Assembly: GCA_900696485.1 (NCBI GenBank)
Contig: CAADGG010000013.1
Span: 51,771 to 115,770 of the forward strand
DNA from: an uncultured Pseudomonadota bacterium
Lineage (GTDB): Bacteria; Myxococcota_A; UBA9160; PR03
Direction: 5' to 3'
Length of the DNA stretch: 64,000 bases
Part shown: positions 111 through 34,294 of the stretch, one piece after another
How positions within the stretch are numbered: position 1 is the stretch's first letter
Layout of the letters: the number at the start of each line of letters is the position of its first letter
Notes under the pieces: generated by a model
The model's database searches: none
What the model was told of the DNA's origin: nothing
Seen by the model: the letters and a program-made list of their open reading frames with translations, nothing else
Position numbers and translations under genes: made by a program

Positions 111-473
<363 letters not shown>

Positions 474-9781: not shown

Positions 9782-10541
9782 CGAGCGTCTCCACGGGGGG
9801 GGCGGGATCGAGGCCGGCCCGCAGCGCGTTCACGAGCGTCTTGCGTCGCGTGCCGAAGGCGGCGCGCACGACGCGTTCGACGTCGAGAAGATCCGCGACT
9901 TCGTCGGGCCCGTCGAGCGGTCCGCTCTCGAGGGGAGTGGCCCGCACCAACGTCGAGGTGACCTTCGGCACCGGGTAGAAGCCGTGCGGCGGCACGTCGC
10001 GGATCCGTTCGAGACGCACACACAGCGCGTGCAGGACGGCGAGCGAGCCGTAGTCGCGCTCGCCCGGCACGGCCATCAAGCGAAGCGCCACCTCCCGCTG
10101 CACCAGCACCAGCCAACCGGACAGGTGCGAGCGCAGATCCAGCAGCCGGCGCAGGATCGGCGTCGAGACGGAATACGGCAGGTTCCCGACCACCCGGACC
10201 GTCGGACCGAGCCGCGCAGCCAGCGCCTCGAGGTCGACCGTCAACGCATCCGCGTGGATCACCTCCACGTGCGCGGGCAGATCGCCTTCCTCGGCCAGCG
10301 CGCGCACGAGGCCCGCGTCGATCTCGATCGCCACGACACGCGCCGCTCGCGCGGCCAGCGCGCGCGTCAGGCTGCCGAGCCCCGGGCCGATCTCGATCAC
10401 GGCGTCCCCGGGCGAAAGACCGGCCGCGGCGGCGATCGCCTCGGCGATGCCGGCGTCGACGAGGAAGTTCTGGCCGCGGTCACGGTGTGCGGCGAGCCCG
10501 CGGCGGGTGAGCAGCGCGCGCACGTCGTCGCGCAGCGTCAC
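9666..10541 (-). CDS. rsmA: 16S rRNA (adenine1518/1519-N6)-dimethyltransferase RsmA/KsgA
   Basis: GTG 10541 overlaps the tsaD stop (GTGA). The sequence contains GQNFLVD and the SAM motif VIEIGPGLGSLT. Confidence 0.85.
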   Translation of the reverse strand: MTLRDDVRALLTRRGLAAHRDRGQNFLVDAGIAEAIAAAAGLSPGDAVIEIGPGLGSLTRALAARAARVVAIEIDAGLVRALAEEGDLPAHVEVIHADALTVDLEALAARLGPTVRVVGNLPYSVSTPILRRLLDLRSHLSGWLVLVQREVALRLMAVPGERDYGSLAVLHALCVRLERIRDVPPHGFYPVPKVTSTLVRATPLESGPLDGPDEVADLLDVERVVRAAFGTRRKTLVNALRAGLDPAPPVETLDAILVRLAIDPRARAEALAPATLLAIARAVVRSRTPDP

Positions 10542-14327: not shown

Positions 14328-15313
14328 CAACCAGAACTCCCAGGCGGTGTGAACTCGAACGGCCAGTCGCCCGCATCGGGCGGCGGCGGCAGCGGGTTCG
14401 CCTTCTCGATGGCGCGCACGACGCTCTCGTCGAACCATGGATTTCCGGAGCGCTGCTGGACCCGCGGCTCACCGAGCACGCGCCCGCCGGCGTCGAGCCG
14501 GACCCGAACCACCGTGCGCAGAGGCTCGCGCTCGAACCCCGGCGGCATGATCCAGGCCTGCTCCACGTGGTACTTGGCCGCGCGCAGCCACACGGCGACC
14601 TCGGCGTCGATGCGCTCGCCGGCGCCGGCGACGCCGGCGCCGGTCGCCCCGGTGGCGCCGGAGACGCCGGCAGCGGAGGCTGTCTGGACGCCTGCGCGAT
14701 CCACCCGGGTCGGCCGCACCTCTCCGCGTTCGGCGCGCAACCCGGCGAGGACGTCGTCGTAGCTCTCCTCCCGGCGCGGCGGGGGGGCGGGCGGCGTCGG
14801 GGCCCGGGGCGGCGCAGCGGGTGGCGTCGGGGCTCGGGGCGGCGCGGCTTTCGCTGCGGGTTTCACCGGCGGAGGCTTCGGCTCCGGATCCGGCCGCGCG
14901 CGCTCCTTGGGCTTCTTCGGGGCGGCCGGCTCCGGCGTTCTCGGCAGCACGGCCTCGCGCGGCGCCGGCTCGGGGGCGGGCGGCGCCGGCTTCGGCGGCG
15001 CCGGAACCGGTTGCGCAAGCTCGGCCGGGGCGGCGGACGGCGCGGCGGCTCGCACGACGCGGGGCGCCGCCGGCGGCGCCCCGGCGGCCGCCATCGCAAC
15101 CAGATCCACCGTGACCACGCCCGGCAGGCGGGGCGCCTCCGGCCCCGGACTCCACCAGAGCGCCCCGAGCAGCACGACGTGGCCGATCGCCGAACGCCCC
15201 AACCAGCGACGCAGGTCGCTCCGCCGGTGGTCTTCGGGGTCCAGCCAGTCGTTCGCGCCCGGGCGCGAGCGGCCGCGGGAGCGGCGATGCGAGCGATCCG
15301 AAGCCAGCGTCAA
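14327..15313 (-). CDS. tolA: TolA-like protein (TM anchor, Pro/Ala-rich spacer, TonB_C-like domain)
   Basis: Track ORF with a TTG start. It has the TM segment GHVVLLGALWW and a long Pro/Ala-rich spacer region (APAPPKPAPPAPEP...). The call also rests on its position between tolR and tolB. Confidence 0.7.
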   Translation of the reverse strand: MTLASDRSHRRSRGRSRPGANDWLDPEDHRRSDLRRWLGRSAIGHVVLLGALWWSPGPEAPRLPGVVTVDLVAMAAAGAPPAAPRVVRAAAPSAAPAELAQPVPAPPKPAPPAPEPAPREAVLPRTPEPAAPKKPKERARPDPEPKPPPVKPAAKAAPPRAPTPPAAPPRAPTPPAPPPRREESYDDVLAGLRAERGEVRPTRVDRAGVQTASAAGVSGATGATGAGVAGAGERIDAEVAVWLRAAKYHVEQAWIMPPGFEREPLRTVVRVRLDAGGRVLGEPRVQQRSGNPWFDESVVRAIEKANPLPPPPDAGDWPFEFTPPGSSG

Positions 15314-25684: not shown

Positions 25685-25771
25685 GCCGTCAAGAAAGGGG
25701 TCGGGTTCGTTTCGTCAACTTTTCCCAAAGGGAAAAGTTGACGAAACGAACCCGACCCCTTTCTTGACGGC
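25685..25771. repeat. perfect 42-nt-arm inverted repeat (87 nt) between convergent genes; possible bidirectional terminator or REP/MITE-like element
   Basis: The left arm at 25685-25726 is the exact reverse complement of 25730-25771, with an AAA loop. The core is GTCAAGAAAGGGGTCGGGTTCGTTTCGTCAACTTTTCCC. It is clearly AT-richer than its surroundings. Confidence 0.9.
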
Positions 25772-27253: not shown

Positions 27254-28444
27254 TTGGACGTCTTCCAGAAATGCCTCGACTACCACACCGCACAGGACGT
27301 GCGGGCGGCCGGCCTCTACCCGTACTACCGGACCCTTGCCTCCGCGCAGGATCCGGAGGTCGTCATGGCCGACGGCCAGCGGCTGGTGATGCTCGGCTCC
27401 AACAATTACCTCGGCCTCACGAACCATCCCGAGGTGAAGGCGGCGGCCGCCGCCGCGCTGGCGCGCTACGGCACCGGCTGCGCCGGCTCCCGGCTGCTCA
27501 ATGGCTCGCTCGACCTGCACGAGGAGCTCGAGGCCCGTCTCGCGTCGTTCATGCGACGCGAGGCGGCGCTGACCTTCTCGACCGGCTACCAGGTCAATCT
27601 CGGCACGCTCTCGTGCCTGCTCGGCCGACACGACGTCGCGATCCTCGATGCGCTCGACCACGCCTCCATCCTCGACGGTGCCCGGCTCGGCTTCGGCAAG
27701 ATCTACAAGTTCCAGCACAACGACCTTGCGAGCCTTGAGAAGAAGCTCGAAGCCGTGCCGGACGGCTGGGGCCGACTGATCGTCGTCGACGGCGTCTTTT
27801 CGATGGAGGGAGACCTCGCGCCGCTGCCAGGCATCGCCGCGCTGAAACGGCGCTACGGCGCGCGATTGATGGTGGACGACGCCCACGGGCTCGGCGTACT
27901 CGGCGCGTCGGGCCGCGGGACCGCGGAACACTTCGGCGTCGAGGCGGACGTCGACCTGGTGATGGGAACGTTCTCGAAGTCCCTCGCGGCGATCGGCGGC
28001 TTCGTCGCCGGGGACGCCGCGATCCTCGAATACATCCGGCACACCGCACGCTCGGCGATCTTCTCGGCGGCGCTGCCCCCCGCGTCGGCGGCCGCCGCGC
28101 TGCAGGCGCTCACGATCGTCGAGCGCGAACCGGAACGCCGCAAGCAACTGCTCGAGGTCACGGCCTACATGAAGCGCGAGCTGCGCGCGCTCGGCTTCGA
28201 TACCGGCGACTCCGACTCGCCGGTGATTCCGATCGTCGTCGGCGACGACCTGCGCGCGATGCGCATGGTGAAGCGCCTGCACGAGGAGGGCGTGTTCGTG
28301 AACTGCGTGATCTCGCCGGCCGTGCCGGAAGGCCGCGCGATGATCCGCACCTCGTACATGGCGACCCACGAGCGCGCGCACCTGGATCGCGCGCTCGATG
28401 CCTTGGCGCGGGTCGGCCGCGAGCTGGGGGTACTCGGTTCGTAG
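27254..28444 (+). CDS. spt: alpha-oxoamine synthase family enzyme, probable serine palmitoyltransferase
   Basis: TTG 27254 lies 8 nt after GGAGGG. The sequence contains MLGSNNYLGL, DDAHGLGVLG and the PLP lysine motif GTFSKSLA. It is globally similar to the Sphingomonas SPT sequence as I recall it. Confidence 0.75.
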   Translation: MDVFQKCLDYHTAQDVRAAGLYPYYRTLASAQDPEVVMADGQRLVMLGSNNYLGLTNHPEVKAAAAAALARYGTGCAGSRLLNGSLDLHEELEARLASFMRREAALTFSTGYQVNLGTLSCLLGRHDVAILDALDHASILDGARLGFGKIYKFQHNDLASLEKKLEAVPDGWGRLIVVDGVFSMEGDLAPLPGIAALKRRYGARLMVDDAHGLGVLGASGRGTAEHFGVEADVDLVMGTFSKSLAAIGGFVAGDAAILEYIRHTARSAIFSAALPPASAAAALQALTIVEREPERRKQLLEVTAYMKRELRALGFDTGDSDSPVIPIVVGDDLRAMRMVKRLHEEGVFVNCVISPAVPEGRAMIRTSYMATHERAHLDRALDALARVGRELGVLGS

Positions 28445-28638
28445 CCCCTGGTGCCGTTGCGCGCGGGACGGTCCCGGCCTCAGCTGGCGAACTGGTCGGC
28501 CCCGAGCAAGAACGCAACGGCGATCGAGTTGTGCAGCGCGTGCATCGCAAACGCACACCCGAACGCGCGCCGCCGAGATCTGCAATCGCGACGGATTCTT
28601 CCCGCGCGGCCGCGCGGGCGATCCCGAGCGCAGTGGCC

Positions 28639-29112
28639 TCAGTCGCCATCGGGCTCGGGAGGGGGAAGCGTTCCGCGCGCAATGATCTGTCCCGTCTCAT
28701 CATCCAGCACGTAGAAGCCAGAGCTGCGAACAATAGGCCCCTTGCCGGGCCAACTCCGCCGGCTGACAAAGCTGCCTTTCGCATGAACGACCCATACCAC
28801 ATCCGACCCGATCTCCTCGACAGACCCGTCATCCCGCACCATCCTCGTCTTCCACGGGTTGCCCGAACGCAGTTTCATGGACAGGATTCGCGGAGCCGGC
28901 GGAACGAGCTCCGGCACTCCTGCGGCACCGGGAACCACGACTTGCGGCTCTGCCAGCCGAGAGAGAACTACCTGAGCCACGTCGTTCGGTGTCATTCGGG
29001 ACGTGAGGCCCGGCTCGATCTCCACTGCGAAGTCCGGAGGCTCCGCCCGAGCTTCATTCCCTAGCGCGAGTCCGAGCACCAGTAAGAGGTACACGACGGT
29101 CGATCGGTGCAT
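28639..29112 (-). CDS. secreted hypothetical protein (157 aa)
   Basis: Track ORF. It has the signal peptide MHRSTVVYLLLVLGLALGNEARA. It starts 15 nt after the upstream stop and lies in the low-GC cassette. Confidence 0.6.
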   Translation of the reverse strand: MHRSTVVYLLLVLGLALGNEARAEPPDFAVEIEPGLTSRMTPNDVAQVVLSRLAEPQVVVPGAAGVPELVPPAPRILSMKLRSGNPWKTRMVRDDGSVEEIGSDVVWVVHAKGSFVSRRSWPGKGPIVRSSGFYVLDDETGQIIARGTLPPPEPDGD

Positions 29113-29127
29113 CCTGATGCTCTCCTC

Positions 29128-30642
29128 TCAGAACGTCCCGCAGGTCTTGGGCGTGAGCGAATTGAAGAAGTACAGAAAGTCCAGCGGTTGTTTGCACTGG
29201 TCGTTCGTCCCGGGAACGACTCCGTTGCAGCAGTCCGTCCCGTGGATCGAAGAAGGGGAAGGGAATTTTCCGAGCGTTGGGCGCGGGTTCAGGTTGTGAA
29301 GATTGGACCAACTGCCCAGCCAGCGATACTGGATGCCCCTCACCGTTGTCGTGTCGATACGACTGGGAGGAGACGTGCTCCCGGGATAGATATTACAGGT
29401 AGCCTCGAGCCCGATCCAGAAATCGGGCGTGCCGGGACCCGGAGCGAGGCTGCCCAGGTTCGTCTTGTCCCAGTTGACGCAGCCGCCTCCAATGCAGGCA
29501 GCGTACTCGAAGGGAGAGTTCGTCGAACTCCAAGGTTGCTTGCAACCCGACTGGGAAGGATTCAGGGCGCAGTTGAGGATTCGACCTTCGACCGTCAGTC
29601 CGACCGACGGTATGCCGGCGATCGGTACCTCCAGGAAGTCGTCTGTGGCGCGGCGGTTCCAAGCCGTGAAATAGGCGAGGACATCGCTGTCTCCGAATCC
29701 TCGAGTGACACCCACCTCGATGCTCTCGGCATTCTCGTTGCCCTCGCCGTTGCCAAGCAAGAGCGGCTCCTGGTTCACAGCGATCAGGATCGCGGACTGG
29801 GAGAATCCTCCGAACTGCCAGTCGATCGCGAATGCGTCCGCGACCTGCCACACGGCCCGGACTCCTCGGACACTCGTGGTATCGGGCGATACGGCGAAGT
29901 AGTTTGCAGCGTACTTCTCGCAGCCGTCGATCGTACGAGGGGTCGTAGCGAAGTTGCTCCCATCGGAGCAGGTCGAGAATTCTCCGTCGTCGCTCCTTGC
30001 GTAGACACGGTATTCTCTCTCCGGCCGAATGTTCTCACCACTGCTGTCGGCAATTGCCCAAAAGCCGCTGCTCGTCGGCGCGGACCCTCGAATGGGTCCA
30101 GTGCATGAGCAGTCGATGGTGCACGAAGCCCCCGAATCGACCGCAATCACGGTCTGTGCGCAACTGCTGTGTGGCAGCGCATCATCTTCGCAAGGCGTGA
30201 TGGATCCGGTGATGGTTCGGTTGTTTGGCGTCGCGATACCAAAGAGCTGCGAAGCGAGGGGTCTCGCGTTCGTGGTCACATTGCTCGGTGCGGAACAAGC
30301 GGTCCCGGAGCCTCCTTGGCTGATCCCATAGACGCTGTACGTGATCCCCGCAGAGAGGCCCTGGAGCGTCCAGCTTCCTCCTTCACTTCCGGACAGATCG
30401 GCCTCGGCGATGGCAGCCGCTCCGCAGGCAGCACCAACGGCCACGGCGCGAACCTTCTGAGCGCAACCGCTAGCCGGGGTTCCATGATTCTGGGTGCACC
30501 CGGAGATCGTCCCCGAGATCGTCGTGGCAAACTGCGGAGAGGAGATCGTGATTGCTGGTGCATCGAGTCCGTCATGACAAGCCAGGACGGCGTAGACGAT
30601 GATTCCAACCACAACGACCCAAGAGACAACGCGTCCCGGCAT
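29128..30642 (-). CDS. Cys-rich putative lipoprotein (504 aa), function unknown
   Basis: Track ORF 29128..30657. I prefer ATG 30642 because AGGAGGGG lies 2-3 nt upstream. The lipobox-like sequence is AVLAC. Two N-terminal repeat modules are followed by a 270-aa Cys/Trp-rich domain. Confidence 0.7.
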   Translation of the reverse strand: MPGRVVSWVVVVGIIVYAVLACHDGLDAPAITISSPQFATTISGTISGCTQNHGTPASGCAQKVRAVAVGAACGAAAIAEADLSGSEGGSWTLQGLSAGITYSVYGISQGGSGTACSAPSNVTTNARPLASQLFGIATPNNRTITGSITPCEDDALPHSSCAQTVIAVDSGASCTIDCSCTGPIRGSAPTSSGFWAIADSSGENIRPEREYRVYARSDDGEFSTCSDGSNFATTPRTIDGCEKYAANYFAVSPDTTSVRGVRAVWQVADAFAIDWQFGGFSQSAILIAVNQEPLLLGNGEGNENAESIEVGVTRGFGDSDVLAYFTAWNRRATDDFLEVPIAGIPSVGLTVEGRILNCALNPSQSGCKQPWSSTNSPFEYAACIGGGCVNWDKTNLGSLAPGPGTPDFWIGLEATCNIYPGSTSPPSRIDTTTVRGIQYRWLGSWSNLHNLNPRPTLGKFPSPSSIHGTDCCNGVVPGTNDQCKQPLDFLYFFNSLTPKTCGTF

Positions 30643-30692
30643 GGCCCCTCCTGACACACCGCGTACAGCCCAACCTCGATCCTTCGATACAC

Positions 30693-30702
30693 GGGGGGGG
30701 GG
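30693..30702. repeat. homopolymeric G10 (C10 on the gene strand) upstream of the lipoprotein gene
   Basis: The sequence acGGGGGGGGGGtcaag was read directly. On the minus strand it reads TTGA-C10-GTGTATCGAAGGAT and lies 51-60 nt upstream of ATG 30642. Confidence 0.9.
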
Positions 30703-30985
30703 TCAAGCAGATTTTCAGCCCGGGTGAGTTCGCGAGGACGAGCAGGCTCGGCTACGACGTCACGCGCGTGCAGACTGCCGTCGGGATCTGCAAACGCACA
30801 AAGCACGTCGCCGTTCACGATCAGGCACGACCCCGGGAAACGCGGCTGCATGGTCTCCGAGCGCGCCGAGATCGCCGTCCCTGCGCTTCCCTGCGCCTGC
30901 CGCGCTCACAAGAGGACATTCGACTCGCGGCAGCGCGGGGTCGGTGCTCGCGCGAATCCGTGGAGTCCCTAGAATCCGCCTTTCG

Positions 30986-31873
30986 ATGACGGGTTCACTG
31001 CCGGAAGCCGATACCCTGTTGCGCCGCGCGCTGGCCTCCGGCCGGGTGCATTCGGCGTATCTGCTGTCCGGTCCGGGGGAGACCCCGCGCCGGGCGGCGC
31101 TCGGCTTCGTTCGCGGGCTCGTCTGCGAAGCCGCTGCCGGCGAGCGACCCTGCGAGACCTGCGCCGCCTGCCGCCGCTCGACGGTGCACGAGGACATCGC
31201 GCTCGACGGCACCGGCAAGAAGGGTCCGCTGTACCGCCATGTCGGCGATCACCCGGATCTGGTGTGGGTGGAGCGCGGCGCCGACGATACGCGTGTCCGG
31301 ATCGGCCAGGTCCGCGCGATCCAGGAGCGCATGCGGCTGCGCTCCGCCGAGGGGGGCCGGCGCGCAGCCGTGATCGCCGATGCCGAATGGCTGAACCAGG
31401 AGGCCCAGAACGCGCTGCTGCGGCTGCTCGAGGAGCCGCCGCCGGAGACGACCCTGGTGCTGGTCACGACGACGGCGACGGGGCTGCTCGCGACGGTCCG
31501 TTCGCGTTGTCAACGCGTGGCCTTCCCCGCCCCGCCGCCGCAGCTCGCCGAGGATCCGGAGACGCAGGCCCTCGTCGAGCGCCTCGCCGGCGTCGGGCAG
31601 CTCGAGATCCCGGCGCTGCTCGACTGGACCGAGGAGTTCCGCGGCGCGCGCGCGGAGGCGGCCGCCGCCGTCGGCGGCTTGCTGCACGTCGCGTCGTTGT
31701 GGCTGCGCGATCGCACGGCGAGCCGGGTCGAGGCCGGCGAGCGGAGTCTCGACCGCGAACTGGCGGCCTTTCGCGAGCTGCAGAGCTGCCGCAAGTCGCT
31801 CGCGCAGCGCAACGCCAACCCGCAGATGGTGGCCGAGCACGCGCTGCTCGCGCTGCAGGGCGCCCTGCGATGA
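30986..31873 (+). CDS. holB: DNA polymerase III subunit delta'
   Basis: ATG at 30986. The sequence contains RVHSAYLLSGPGE, the zinc module CETCAACRR, NALLRLLEEPP and SRCQRV. Confidence 0.8.
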   Translation: MTGSLPEADTLLRRALASGRVHSAYLLSGPGETPRRAALGFVRGLVCEAAAGERPCETCAACRRSTVHEDIALDGTGKKGPLYRHVGDHPDLVWVERGADDTRVRIGQVRAIQERMRLRSAEGGRRAAVIADAEWLNQEAQNALLRLLEEPPPETTLVLVTTTATGLLATVRSRCQRVAFPAPPPQLAEDPETQALVERLAGVGQLEIPALLDWTEEFRGARAEAAAAVGGLLHVASLWLRDRTASRVEAGERSLDRELAAFRELQSCRKSLAQRNANPQMVAEHALLALQGALR

Positions 31874-33462
31874 AGCGATCCGCGGACCCGGCCGACCCGA
31901 CGCCTGGCGCCGGACCGCTCTACGTCACGACACCGATCTACTACGCCAACGCCGCACCGCACATCGGCCACACCTATACGACCGTCGTCGCCGACACGCT
32001 GGTACGCTGGCGCCGACTGCTCGGAGCCGACGCTTTCTCGGTGTCGGGAACCGACGAGCACGGAGAGAAGATGGTCGAGGCCGCGGCGACGCGGGGGGTC
32101 GCTCCGGCCGCGTTCACCGCGGAGATTTCGGCGACCTTCCAGCAGACCTGGGCGGAACTCGGCATCGCACCGGATGCGTTCGTCCGGACCACGGACCCGA
32201 CGCACACCCGCAACGTGCAGGCGATCCTGCAGAGAGTCTGGGAGGCCGGCTGGATCGAGCAGCGCGAGTACGACGGCCTGTACTGCATCGGTTGCGAGCG
32301 CTTCCTCACCGAGCGCGATCTGGTGGACGGACTCTGCCGCGACCACGAGCGCGCGCCGGAGCCGCGGCGGGAGAGCAACTACTTCTTCCGGATGAGTCGC
32401 GAGTTCGACTGGCTGCGCGACCACATCGAGCGCCATCCGGAGTTCATCACACCCGAGCGCTACCGCAACGAGGCGCTCGCGATGCTGCGCGACGAGAGCG
32501 GCCTCGGCGACCTCTCGATCTCGCGCCCGAAGTCACGGCTCGCCTGGGGCGTCGAGCTGCCCTTCGATCCGGAACACGTCTGCTACGTCTGGTTCGACGC
32601 ACTGATCTCGTATCTGACGGGCGCCGGCTATCCGGACGATCCGGCCTTCGCCGCGCGCTGGGACGTCGTCGAGCACCTGATCGGCAAGGACATCCTGAAG
32701 CCGCATGCGATCTTCTGGCCGATCATGCTGAAGACGATCGGCCTGCCGCCGTACCGGCGGCTGCACGTGCACGGCTACTGGAACGTCGACAACCGCAAGG
32801 TGTCGAAGAGCCTCGGCAACATGGTCTCACCGCTGGCGATGCGGGACCGCTACGGCTTCGAGGCGTTCCGCTACTTCCTGCTGCGCGAGATGAGCTTCGG
32901 CCTCGACGCGGGCTTCAGCGAGGAGGCCCTGGCCTCGCGCGTCAATGCGGACCTCGCCAACAACCTCGGCAACCTGGTGAGCCGTACCCTCAACCTGGTG
33001 GCGAAATGGTGCGACGGCCGTGTGCCGGCACCGGAGAACGAGGGCGACGCCGAGCATGCCGTCGCCGCGGCGGCGGTCGCCACGACGGACGCCGTCGCCC
33101 ACGCGATGGCCACCCTGCGACCCCACGACGCGCTGGCGGCGATCCTCGATCTGGCCAGCACCGTGAACCGCTATCTCGACACGCAGGCGCCGTGGAAGGC
33201 CGCAAAGCAGCCGGACGGCGAAGCCCGCGTGCGCACGAGCCTCGCCACGGCGTGCCGGGGCCTGCGTGCGCTCGCGCTGTTGCTCGCTGCGTTCCTGCCG
33301 AACGCCGCGCAGGGGATCGCGGAGCGGCTCGGAGTTCCGGATCTGCTCGCCGACGCGCGCCTGCCGGACGCTGCGCAGGCGTGGGACGCTCTCGCTCCGG
33401 GCACGCGCATCGACAAAGGTGCGGCGTTGTTCCCGCGCATCGAGCTGCGGACGGAGGACTGA
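31870..33462 (+). CDS. metG: methionine--tRNA ligase
   Basis: ATG 31870 overlaps the holB stop (ATGA). The sequence contains PIYYANAAPHIGH (HIGH motif) and KVSKSLGN (KMSKS motif). Confidence 0.95.
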   Translation: MKRSADPADPTPGAGPLYVTTPIYYANAAPHIGHTYTTVVADTLVRWRRLLGADAFSVSGTDEHGEKMVEAAATRGVAPAAFTAEISATFQQTWAELGIAPDAFVRTTDPTHTRNVQAILQRVWEAGWIEQREYDGLYCIGCERFLTERDLVDGLCRDHERAPEPRRESNYFFRMSREFDWLRDHIERHPEFITPERYRNEALAMLRDESGLGDLSISRPKSRLAWGVELPFDPEHVCYVWFDALISYLTGAGYPDDPAFAARWDVVEHLIGKDILKPHAIFWPIMLKTIGLPPYRRLHVHGYWNVDNRKVSKSLGNMVSPLAMRDRYGFEAFRYFLLREMSFGLDAGFSEEALASRVNADLANNLGNLVSRTLNLVAKWCDGRVPAPENEGDAEHAVAAAAVATTDAVAHAMATLRPHDALAAILDLASTVNRYLDTQAPWKAAKQPDGEARVRTSLATACRGLRALALLLAAFLPNAAQGIAERLGVPDLLADARLPDAAQAWDALAPGTRIDKGAALFPRIELRTED

Positions 33463-33469
33463 CGCGCGC

Positions 33470-34294
33470 ATGTGGATCGACAGCCACACGCACGTGACGG
33501 CCGCCGAGTTCGACGCGGACCGAGAGGCGGTGCTGGCGCGCGCCCGCGCGGCCGGCGTCGAGGCGATGATCGCGATCGGCGCAGGCTGGGGGATCGACGC
33601 CAATCGCGCCGCCGTCGAGCTCGCGGCGCAGCGGAACGATATCTGGGCTGCCGTCGGCGTCCACCCACACGATGCGCAACAGCTCGACGATGCCGGCCGC
33701 AGATCGCTCGCCGAGTGGCTGGGCCGGCCACGGGTGGTCGCGGTCGGCGAGTGCGGGCTCGACTATCACTACATGAACTCACCGCGCGAGCAGCAGCGTG
33801 CGGTCTTCGCCGAGCACGTGGTCTGGGCTCGCGAGCGCGACCTGCCCGTCTCGATCCACGTGCGCGGCGACGAACCGGGCACCTGGGACGAGCTGCTCGA
33901 CATCTGGCTTGCGGAAGGCCGCGGTGAGGTCGCCGGTGTGTTGCACTGCTACACCGGATCGCTCGACTTCGCGTGGCGCGCCCTCGACGCGCGGCTCGAG
34001 ATCTCGTTCTCCGGCATCGTCAGCTTCCGCAACGCCAAGGAGGTCCGGGAGGTCGCCGCGGCGCTGCCGCTCGACCGCCTGCTCCTCGAGACGGACTGCC
34101 CGTTGCTGGCGCCGGTACCGCACCGCGGACGGCGCAACGAACCGGCCTATGTCGTGCACGTCGGCGCGGCGATCGCGGCGGTGCGCGGCGTCGCGCCGGA
34201 GCAGATCGCGCGTGCGACGACCGCCAACGCGCGGCGCCTGTTCCGGTTGCCGGCCGCCCCGGCGCAGGACCACGACGAAGAGGTGCCGTCGTGA
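33470..34294 (+). CDS. tatD: TatD-family metal-dependent hydrolase
   Basis: ATG at 33470. The sequence contains MWIDSHTHV, GECGLDYHY and ETDCPLLAP. Confidence 0.9.
   Translation: MWIDSHTHVTAAEFDADREAVLARARAAGVEAMIAIGAGWGIDANRAAVELAAQRNDIWAAVGVHPHDAQQLDDAGRRSLAEWLGRPRVVAVGECGLDYHYMNSPREQQRAVFAEHVVWARERDLPVSIHVRGDEPGTWDELLDIWLAEGRGEVAGVLHCYTGSLDFAWRALDARLEISFSGIVSFRNAKEVREVAAALPLDRLLLETDCPLLAPVPHRGRRNEPAYVVHVGAAIAAVRGVAPEQIARATTANARRLFRLPAAPAQDHDEEVPS

Follow-up and report, generated by a model that had tools for sequence, protein, structure and literature searches.

Switches built on a homopolymer in the promoter spacer are textbook cases in Neisseria, Bordetella, Haemophilus, Mycoplasma and Treponema. 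In Bordetella pertussis fim2 and fim3, with their C-stretches, and in the poly-G promoters of the Treponema pallidum tpr genes, the length of the tract modulates transcription of surface genes, and for both kinds of tracts variation is documented from strain to strain as well as inside a strain; the fim tract separates the site of an activator (BvgA) from the –10 box. Leaders that sequester the Shine-Dalgarno (SD) sequence are also known, among them the fourU and ROSE RNA thermometers and the anti-SD leaders, the thermometers using U-runs with weak pairs. To our knowledge, promoter-spacer homopolymer switches are essentially undescribed in Myxococcota, and our literature search found no report of SSR-based phase variation in this phylum. 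The closest described systems are the Neisseria genes porA (van der Ende et al., 1995, J Bacteriol 177:2475) and opc (Sarkari et al., 1994, Mol Microbiol 13:207), both cited in PMC5084427 and PMC3447861.

The locus described here resembles the Neisseria porA, opc and fetA promoters in having a G/C homopolymer (about 9–14 nt in Neisseria) at or just after the putative –35 box of a gene for a predicted surface protein. By analogy, the length of the run would set the distance between the –35 and –10 boxes, and C10 with a 16-nt spacer would parallel the intermediate state of porA. A poly-C or poly-G run upstream of a surface-protein gene is likewise the arrangement seen in Bordetella fim2/fim3 and T. 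pallidum tpr. There are also clear differences. Length polymorphism, a mapped promoter and length-dependent expression have been demonstrated in Neisseria, whereas our locus is a sequence-based candidate only; unlike in Neisseria, its consensus length is invariant, its –10 box is doubtful, and the tract of the ortholog is interrupted. Bordetella fim has the BvgA site and tract variation, neither of which is known at this locus. The host also differs, being an environmental high-GC myxococcotal bacterium, while Neisseria is a host-adapted pathogen. Hence we consider the locus a candidate for, and not a member of, the class of promoter-spacer phase-variation systems.

The tract was found in a 64-kb stretch of DNA, which was analysed as a whole and is called the window below; its G+C content is 70.7%. 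Judged by the relatives of its holB gene, the source is an uncultured myxococcotal bacterium. The + strand contains G10 at 30693–30702, in the context GATACAC-GGGGGGGGGG-TCAAGCAGATTTTC, which is C10 on the – strand that encodes the gene. Read along the gene strand, GAAAATC (30716–30710) is followed by TGC, TTGA (30706–30703), the C10 run (30702–30693), GTGTATCG and AAGGAT (30684–30679), and further downstream by the SD sequence AGGAGGGG (30652–30645), CC and the ATG at 30642. A preceding sequence-only reading had reported a G10/C10 run fused to TTGA, ending about 50 nt before an ATG with a strong SD. Every sequence detail of this description is correct, positions included: exactly 50 nt separate the last C of the run from the ATG, and the SD, located 2 nt before the ATG, is the strongest among 22 neighbouring genes.

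The impression that a 10-nt run stands out here was also justified, as C10 is the longest homopolymer in the window, followed by one G8, coding (as C8) at 9795–9802, and four runs of 7, at 14781, 27230, 48084 and 58764. Under a first-order Markov model, 0.05–0.12 such runs are expected per strand base. An empirical decay of run counts with length was fitted on the window together with 424 kb from 65 related Myxococcota loci; the count drops 0.21-fold per added base, and the fit expects 0.05 G/C runs of at least 10 nt per 64 kb and about 3.6 per 4.8-Mb genome. Given these two expectations, the C10 run is rare for one window and ordinary for a genome-wide scan. No G/C run of at least 10 nt is present in the 424 kb of related loci (65 holB loci). 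The tract is real and not an assembly artefact, as it is seen in 12 independent short-read assemblies. The feature that characterises the class, a mononucleotide run of about 8 nt or more, is thus present in the form of C10.

The run lies directly 3' of a conserved TTGAC. The candidate –35 hexamer, TTGACC (30701–30706), has as its last two bases the first two C of the run, and TTGAC is kept in L001, the only ortholog with available upstream DNA. Three nucleotides upstream of TTGAC there is an A-rich block, GAAAATC (30710–30716), with 7/7 bases kept in L001, which may be either an UP-element-like sequence or an alternative –10 box, GAAAAT. The ssrA and tetR promoters of this organism read TTGACA-17-TAGGTT and TTGACG-17-TACAAT, respectively, and, judged by sequence, the organism uses E. 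coli-like canonical TTGACA-N17-TAnnnT promoters. As both are of the sigma-70-type consensus, it is reasonable to read TTGACC as a –35 box with an A-rich, UP-like element upstream.

The candidate –10 box is weaker. AAGGAT (30679–30684), 16 nt after TTGACC, keeps the bases at the two critical positions (A at 2, T at 6), matches TATAAT at 3/6 positions and has 4/6 bases in common with the –10 box of ssrA. Its equivalent in L001 is GAGAAG or CGAGAA, at 17 or 16 nt, respectively, and AAGGAT thus is not conserved. A consensus promoter scan found no sigma-70-type site on the gene strand in the window locus or in L001, AAGGAT scoring under the threshold, and a terminator scan yielded nothing on the gene strand of either locus. 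The sequence-only reading had itself cautioned that no –10 box was convincing and that AAGGAT at 16 nt was the best candidate, and the scan agrees with it. Its placement of the run 3' of the –35 box within the promoter spacer holds in part: the run does adjoin TTGACC in a conserved block, but the –10 box that would delimit the spacer is weak and unconserved. Two other promoter types were considered by eye. The sigma-54 signature GG-N10-GC can be placed on GGGCTGAAAATCTGCT in the window, and was rejected for its lack of conservation in L001. An ECF-type promoter with GAAAAT as the –35 and CGT as the –10 element would have spacers of 18–19 nt, which is 2–3 nt too long, with a spacing that differs between the two lineages.

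For the upstream region, L001 is the single comparison lineage, with about 81% nucleotide identity to the cassette of the window. The homology starts exactly at GAAAATC-N3/4-TTGAC, position 163 of L001 corresponding to 30716 of the window. The 29-nt island that begins here, GAAAATC..TTGAC..C-run..GT(A)GTA (30688–30716, gene strand), has 70–75% identity, compared to 15–60% over the remaining upstream region (both calculated in 20-nt segments). Apart from the island, only the SD (and the ATG) are conserved upstream of the gene. The island motif occurs neither elsewhere in the window nor in any locus fetched. Word-indexed protein searches yielded nothing beyond the 80% ortholog and truncated gene calls, and in the one distant homolog with DNA (L084) the upstream region is unrelated and contains no homopolymer.

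In both lineages the genes upstream are divergent, holB at a distance of 343 nt in the window, and a different, apparently divergent, SDR-like gene, starting 139 nt before the ATG, in L001. Since the upstream genes are divergent in both lineages, and since the island is the sole conserved upstream block besides the SD and ATG, the promoter would have to be in the island, and the GAAAATC..TTGAC block, as the only conserved upstream stretch, is therefore predicted to be the promoter region. The location of the tract in the core promoter region of the lipoprotein gene thus appears well supported. The presence of the cassette in differing genomic contexts, with a putative promoter of its own, fits an element that begins with the UP/–35 region.

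The run itself differs between the two lineages in composition and not in the space it occupies. The window has TTGAC-CCCCCCCCC-GT and L001 has TTGAC-AG-CCCCCCC-GT, that is, C9 is replaced by AG and C7, and the distance from TTGAC to GT is equal, although the run in L001 is shorter and interrupted. This spacing is kept despite about 19% divergence of the gene and near-random identity farther upstream. An equal distance with an interrupted run points to constrained spacing, with selection for a fixed distance or a fixed sequence, and seems unlike the product of a tract freely expanding and contracting. Promoter spacers normally show no sequence conservation. The conservation of the C7 core and GT(A)GTA, and not of the proposed –10 box, suggests that the C-run itself may have a sequence-specific role.

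The reading we prefer, with a probability of about 0.4, is that C10 is an effectively fixed-length spacer in a sigma-70-type core promoter (TTGACC-16-AAGGAT) of a two-gene cassette; a further, smaller weight goes to the same promoter geometry evolved into a switch. In this promoter, the UP-like GAAAATC (AAAAT) would be followed by the –35 box TTGACC, a 16-nt spacer and the weak –10 box AAGGAT, with the C-run as the upstream half of the spacer and C at its first eight positions. Transcription would start near 30671–30675, so that the leader would be about 30 nt long and carry a strong SD. As the run length would fix the –35/–10 geometry, C10 giving 16 nt and C11 giving 17 nt as in the clear promoters of this genome, slippage would alter transcription, and C7–C9 would cripple the promoter, in the manner of porA and opc. 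With its length held at C10 in the assemblies and its spacing kept across the lineages, the run behaves as a constrained, slippage-prone spacer and not as a demonstrated switch. Phase variation is a plausible, unproven reading, which the invariant C10 and the conserved spacing make somewhat less likely.

Public assemblies were searched for exact copies of the lipoprotein, its partner and holB. C10 is present in all 12 short-read assemblies that span the tract: GCA_023384285.1, ERZ3604704, JGI 3300009868 and nine SRA runs (loci L003, L005–L009, L079, L080, L083, L085, L087 and L088). A search of the literature for the accessions of two assemblies gave nothing. Copies of the window lineage are 100% identical over the cassette and promoter, with 0 SNPs, so that all of them represent one widespread clone. 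The differences observed lie outside this region and comprise a 73-bp gap in L004, error-type indels and one substitution in L002, and SNPs in the metG region of L083. The last of these loci was considered as a strain diverged by 1.8%, and this was rejected: its 56 SNPs and a 52-bp indel all fall within 31510–33974, and the locus is not independent.

A different length, C7, is found in one assembly only, the 4.77-Mb contig of GCA_027493655.1. Compared to the window over 21.5 kb, this contig has one substitution and five indels, all in or next to G/C runs (G6 to G5, G5 to G4, C2 to C3, an added G, and C10 to C7), and it loses two gene calls. As the four other indels also are single-base changes in G/C runs, we do not trust C7, which bears the signature of long-read homopolymer error. 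The length heterogeneity looked for as a sign of switching was therefore not seen across the public assemblies, all from one clone: there is no reliable consensus other than C10. This invariance is weak evidence, coming from a single clone, and says little on slippage below about 1e-4 per generation; as there are no SNPs at the locus, it argues only against very high neutral switching rates. Moreover, PMC3447861 describes 89 colonies of MMR-proficient N. meningitidis in which the opc tract was unchanged, so an invariant consensus is compatible with a switch.

Five contigs that do not span the tract start within 209 nt upstream of the gene, and four of these starts (30701, 30702, 30706 and 30712) are at most 12 nt from the tract (p about 5e-5 versus uniform). 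The first bases of the contig are exactly C9 in L004 and exactly C10 in L086, and these are the nodes where mixtures of C9/C10 or C10/C11 reads would interrupt a k=31 assembly graph. The clustered contig ends mean that reads either disagree or become sparse there, and they hint at heterogeneity at the read level, for which biological slippage and PCR or sequencing stutter are alike possible, and the tract length may not be fixed within populations.

The gene downstream of the tract (29128–30642, – strand) encodes a protein of 504 aa. As the sequence-only reading had stated, it is a predicted lipoprotein, with lipobox VLAC in the signal peptide after a hydrophobic N-terminus. It has no Pfam or NCBIfam match, and neither has the 157-aa partner protein. 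The AlphaFold (AF2) model, built from a 12-sequence alignment (pLDDT 82), contains two FN3-like domains and a C-terminal beta-sandwich. Foldseek matched FN3 arrays, and for the C-terminal sandwich the best single-domain match among solved structures was neprosin (7zvc_A, TMt 0.64). Neprosin is a glutamic-class prolyl endopeptidase. The glutamates E309 and E413 do not vary across the alignment of the family, which is small, with about 25 representatives at E ≤1e-3 among 1.84 billion proteins. A search of species-representative genomes for the lipoprotein gave 0 relatives, and the JGI metagenomes gave 0 matches to the exact right flank and 0 relatives with the smaller family alignment A4. With its lipobox, these domains and an accessory cassette, the product is of the surface or contingency type seen in the class, its surface exposure being predicted. 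A 241-aa product in many assemblies was considered as a frameshift or a second switch and discarded, as the DNA is identical and the difference is one of gene calling only.

The gene of the partner (28639–29112, – strand), which has an N-terminal signal-like segment, lies 15 nt downstream of the lipoprotein gene, and the two are probably in one operon; the pairing is also observed in L001, L082 and the distant homolog L084. Together with the putative promoter, they constitute a lineage-specific 2.4-kb cassette (28475–30918, – strand). It is absent from the closest species representative, L012, whose alignment to the window, at about 85% identity, covers one flank as far as 28474 and the other from 30919 onwards and leaves only about 130 bp of L012 in the middle. 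No cassette homolog was found in any of the 65 related Myxococcota holB loci from species-representative genomes, and the only lineages that share the cassette with the window are L001 and L082, where its neighbourhood is different, with cobW and hypA downstream and the apparently divergent SDR-like gene upstream. The junction sequences at the cassette borders contain no repeats that would be hallmarks of a mobile element.

The sequence-only reading had proposed a phase-variation switch in which changes in the number of C shift the –35/–10 spacing. Spelled out, this would be a contingency locus whose C-run is maintained for slipping, the lipoprotein operon being stochastically switched or graded as in Neisseria porA, opc and fetA, with full expression at C11 (17 nt), intermediate at C10 (16 nt), and little or none at C9 or fewer. 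Several points speak for it: the 10-nt run is directly 3' of TTGAC in a conserved promoter island, and the cassette, an accessory one, encodes a lipoprotein that is predicted to be at the surface or secreted. Moreover, a C-run of at least 7 has been kept in a lineage diverged by about 19%, while the neighbouring DNA has been randomised; C10 is one base below the 17-nt optimum, like the intermediate state of porA; and the clustering of contig ends at the run, with one starting exactly at C9 and another exactly at C10, is what coexisting C9, C10 and C11 alleles would give, although PCR stutter or sequencing errors can break contigs at G10/C10 as well. Variation itself is not seen in the consensus. 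C10 is the modal length throughout the 12 assemblies, which stem from many runs of the one clone, and the one deviating length was read in an assembly with a tendency to homopolymer errors. The AG and C7 of the ortholog, interrupted and shorter at the same overall spacing, would rather reflect selection on a fixed distance, the –10 box is unconvincing and unconserved, and for Myxococcota the literature search gave no precedent. On balance we regard a switch maintained for slippage as unlikely. A true contingency switch in a free-living, uncultured myxococcotal bacterium, in which slippage in the spacer or in the first transcribed bases would grade the expression of a horizontally mobile cassette, is similarly doubtful, and it is with the same reserve that one may speak of a switched cassette encoding a surface-anchored neprosin-like glutamic peptidase and its partner. 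About three to four such runs per genome are expected without any function, and this brings in the possibility that the homopolymer is incidental, a chance or mutational expansion in a GC-rich intergenic region that only fills space, its conservation being due to shared ancestry of a recently transferred cassette. A scan of many windows is bound to meet such runs, no promoter at the locus passes the consensus scan, and there is one comparison lineage only. Yet the run sits in the sole conserved block of a randomised upstream region, beside a perfect TTGAC and with the same spacing in the ortholog, and 424 kb of related loci contain no run of at least 10; we hold this to be the least probable of the explanations considered.

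A further explanation assigns the run to the transcript. If GAAAAT were the –10 box, transcription would start at about 30703–30705, within TTGAC, and the mRNA would begin with the C-run, which would pair with the G-rich SD (GGAGGGG in the window, GGAGGGGG in L001) and occlude ribosome binding; the occlusion would be relieved by temperature, a factor or co-transcriptional kinetics, and the tract length would tune the stability of the helix. GAAAATC is conserved at 7/7 positions, and as a –10 candidate GAAAAT is better conserved than AAGGAT, position 2 being A and position 6 being T in both lineages; the conserved part of the region also is the C-run core and not the –10 box supposed in the preferred reading. 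The SD is the most G-rich among the 22 neighbouring genes. As in SD-sequestering leaders, the upstream pyrimidine run, if transcribed, is predicted to pair with the SD purines in both lineages: in partition-function folding, the mean probability of the SD being unpaired is 0.17 with the tract versus 0.49–0.67 without it in the window, and 0.16 versus 0.47–0.75 in L001. The L001 leader has a predicted energy of –42.2 kcal/mol (z = –4.2 versus shuffles), with UUGACAGCCCCCC pairing with GGGGGCAUGUCGA. However, this extended helix is not conserved, and the window leader is less stable than its shuffles (z = +2.2 and +1.8), with no sign of selection for structure there. The pairing is trivial in that any C-run pairs with any G-run, and, unlike the fourU and ROSE elements, it would be very stable and poorly meltable. 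No –35-like element is present upstream of GAAAAT in either lineage, the homology ending at this point. The locus also differs from fourU and ROSE in having neither an Rfam family nor covariation support: Rfam 15 gave no match in 30550–31050 at E ≤10, and tmRNA only for the whole window at gathering score, and two sequences are too few for covariation. We regard an anti-SD leader as a serious rival, about as unlikely as the switch and less so than an incidental run, and we retain the constrained spacer of a sigma-70-type promoter as the preferred reading.

The present evidence supports only a conserved promoter element with a slippage-prone run of stable consensus length, which is an ordinary finding. 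The product of the cassette is of some interest apart from it, being a lipoprotein with FN3-like and neprosin-like domains from a tiny family. Many Myxococcota are predatory. If the switch is true, it would be a known type of mechanism in an unusual phylum, carrying phase variation by promoter SSRs beyond host-adapted pathogens into an environmental lineage of high G+C and linking it to an uncharacterised protease family. Contingency loci would then serve surface or secreted functions also in bacteria that are environmental, rich in G+C and proficient in mismatch repair.

The 504-aa lipoprotein (29128–30642, minus strand) has no match in Pfam or NCBIfam, and its family is small: a set of 1.84 billion proteins contains no more than about 25 of its representatives. 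Its structure model (pLDDT 82) comprises two FN3-like domains followed by a C-terminal beta-sandwich, the latter resembling neprosin (7zvc_A, TMt 0.64), a glutamic-class (G3) prolyl endopeptidase. Two glutamates, E309 and E413, are invariant in the family and constitute a candidate catalytic pair.

The gene for the partner protein, about 155 aa long (28639–29112, minus strand; 1245–1709 in L084, a contig with a distant homolog), is always the next one after the neprosin-like gene, even beside a homolog of approximately 47% identity in a lower-GC organism. The protein looks secreted and belongs to no known family; it may be an inhibitor, a chaperone or a partner of the putative peptidase.

In most public annotations the lipoprotein gene is split, on identical DNA, into a 241-aa C-terminal product and a spurious overlapping 191-aa ORF (gene calls at 29128–29853 and 30276–30851, respectively, both on the minus strand). 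Because of this splitting, the full 504-aa protein is recorded in only 40 collection blocks, compared to the 241 blocks in which its neighbor, the partner protein, is indexed.

As for the transcription machinery of the host, the tmRNA gene (111–473, minus strand; tag ADSDYALAA) is preceded by a textbook promoter, TTGACA–N17–TAGGTT, at 500–527 on the same strand. It shows that the housekeeping sigma factor of the organism uses an E. coli-like consensus.

The second-longest homopolymer of the window, at 9795–9802 (G8 on the plus strand, C8 on the minus strand), lies inside the 3' part of an rsmA/ksgA-like coding sequence, where it codes for Pro-Pro. A 148-aa ORF has its ATG 14 nt downstream of the run. 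This run may be used as an internal control for homopolymer stutter at the level of reads.

The 4.77-Mb contig of GCA_027493655.1 differs from the window region 19127–40644 by one substitution and five indels, all five indels falling within or adjoining G/C runs, and neither the ABC ATPase nor the aminotransferase has been called as a gene on it; the differences are probably long-read homopolymer errors creating false frameshifts. The contig from JGI 3300009868, compared over 27988–34119, is a mosaic: it is 100% identical to the window across 27988–31509, while 56 SNPs and a 52-bp indel are all confined to 31510–33974, that is, the holB end and metG. Either strains have recombined here, or the contig is a metagenomic chimera.

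The gap adjoining the bactofilin gene holds an 87-nt palindrome (25685–25771), a perfect 42-nt inverted repeat (GCCGTCAAGAAAGGGGTCGGGTTCGTTTCGTCAACTTTTCCC and its complement) with a 3-nt loop. Seventy-three base pairs of it are missing from the Logan contig L004, contig L005 terminates at it, and a contig end of GCA_023384285.1 falls within it. The palindrome is certainly an assembler breakpoint; it could be a hairpin-forming element that acts as a bidirectional terminator or is REP/MITE-like, or else an indel polymorphism.

Many SRA, ENA and JGI accessions that are unrelated to one another have yielded assemblies containing the clone to which the window belongs. Its copies have zero SNPs at the cassette formed by the two genes and their promoter, and almost none over up to 21 kb around it. 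The clonal population is unusually widespread for an uncultured Myxococcota bacterium.

In the closest species representative, both flanks have about 85% nucleotide identity to those in the window; compared with it, the two-gene cassette (28475–30918) is an insertion or a deletion. No hallmarks of mobile elements were seen at the cassette. It is missing beside holB in 65 related MAGs, and in the two other lineages sharing it (L001 and L082) it adjoins cobW/hypA instead. These differences in presence and neighborhood suggest that the cassette has moved horizontally.
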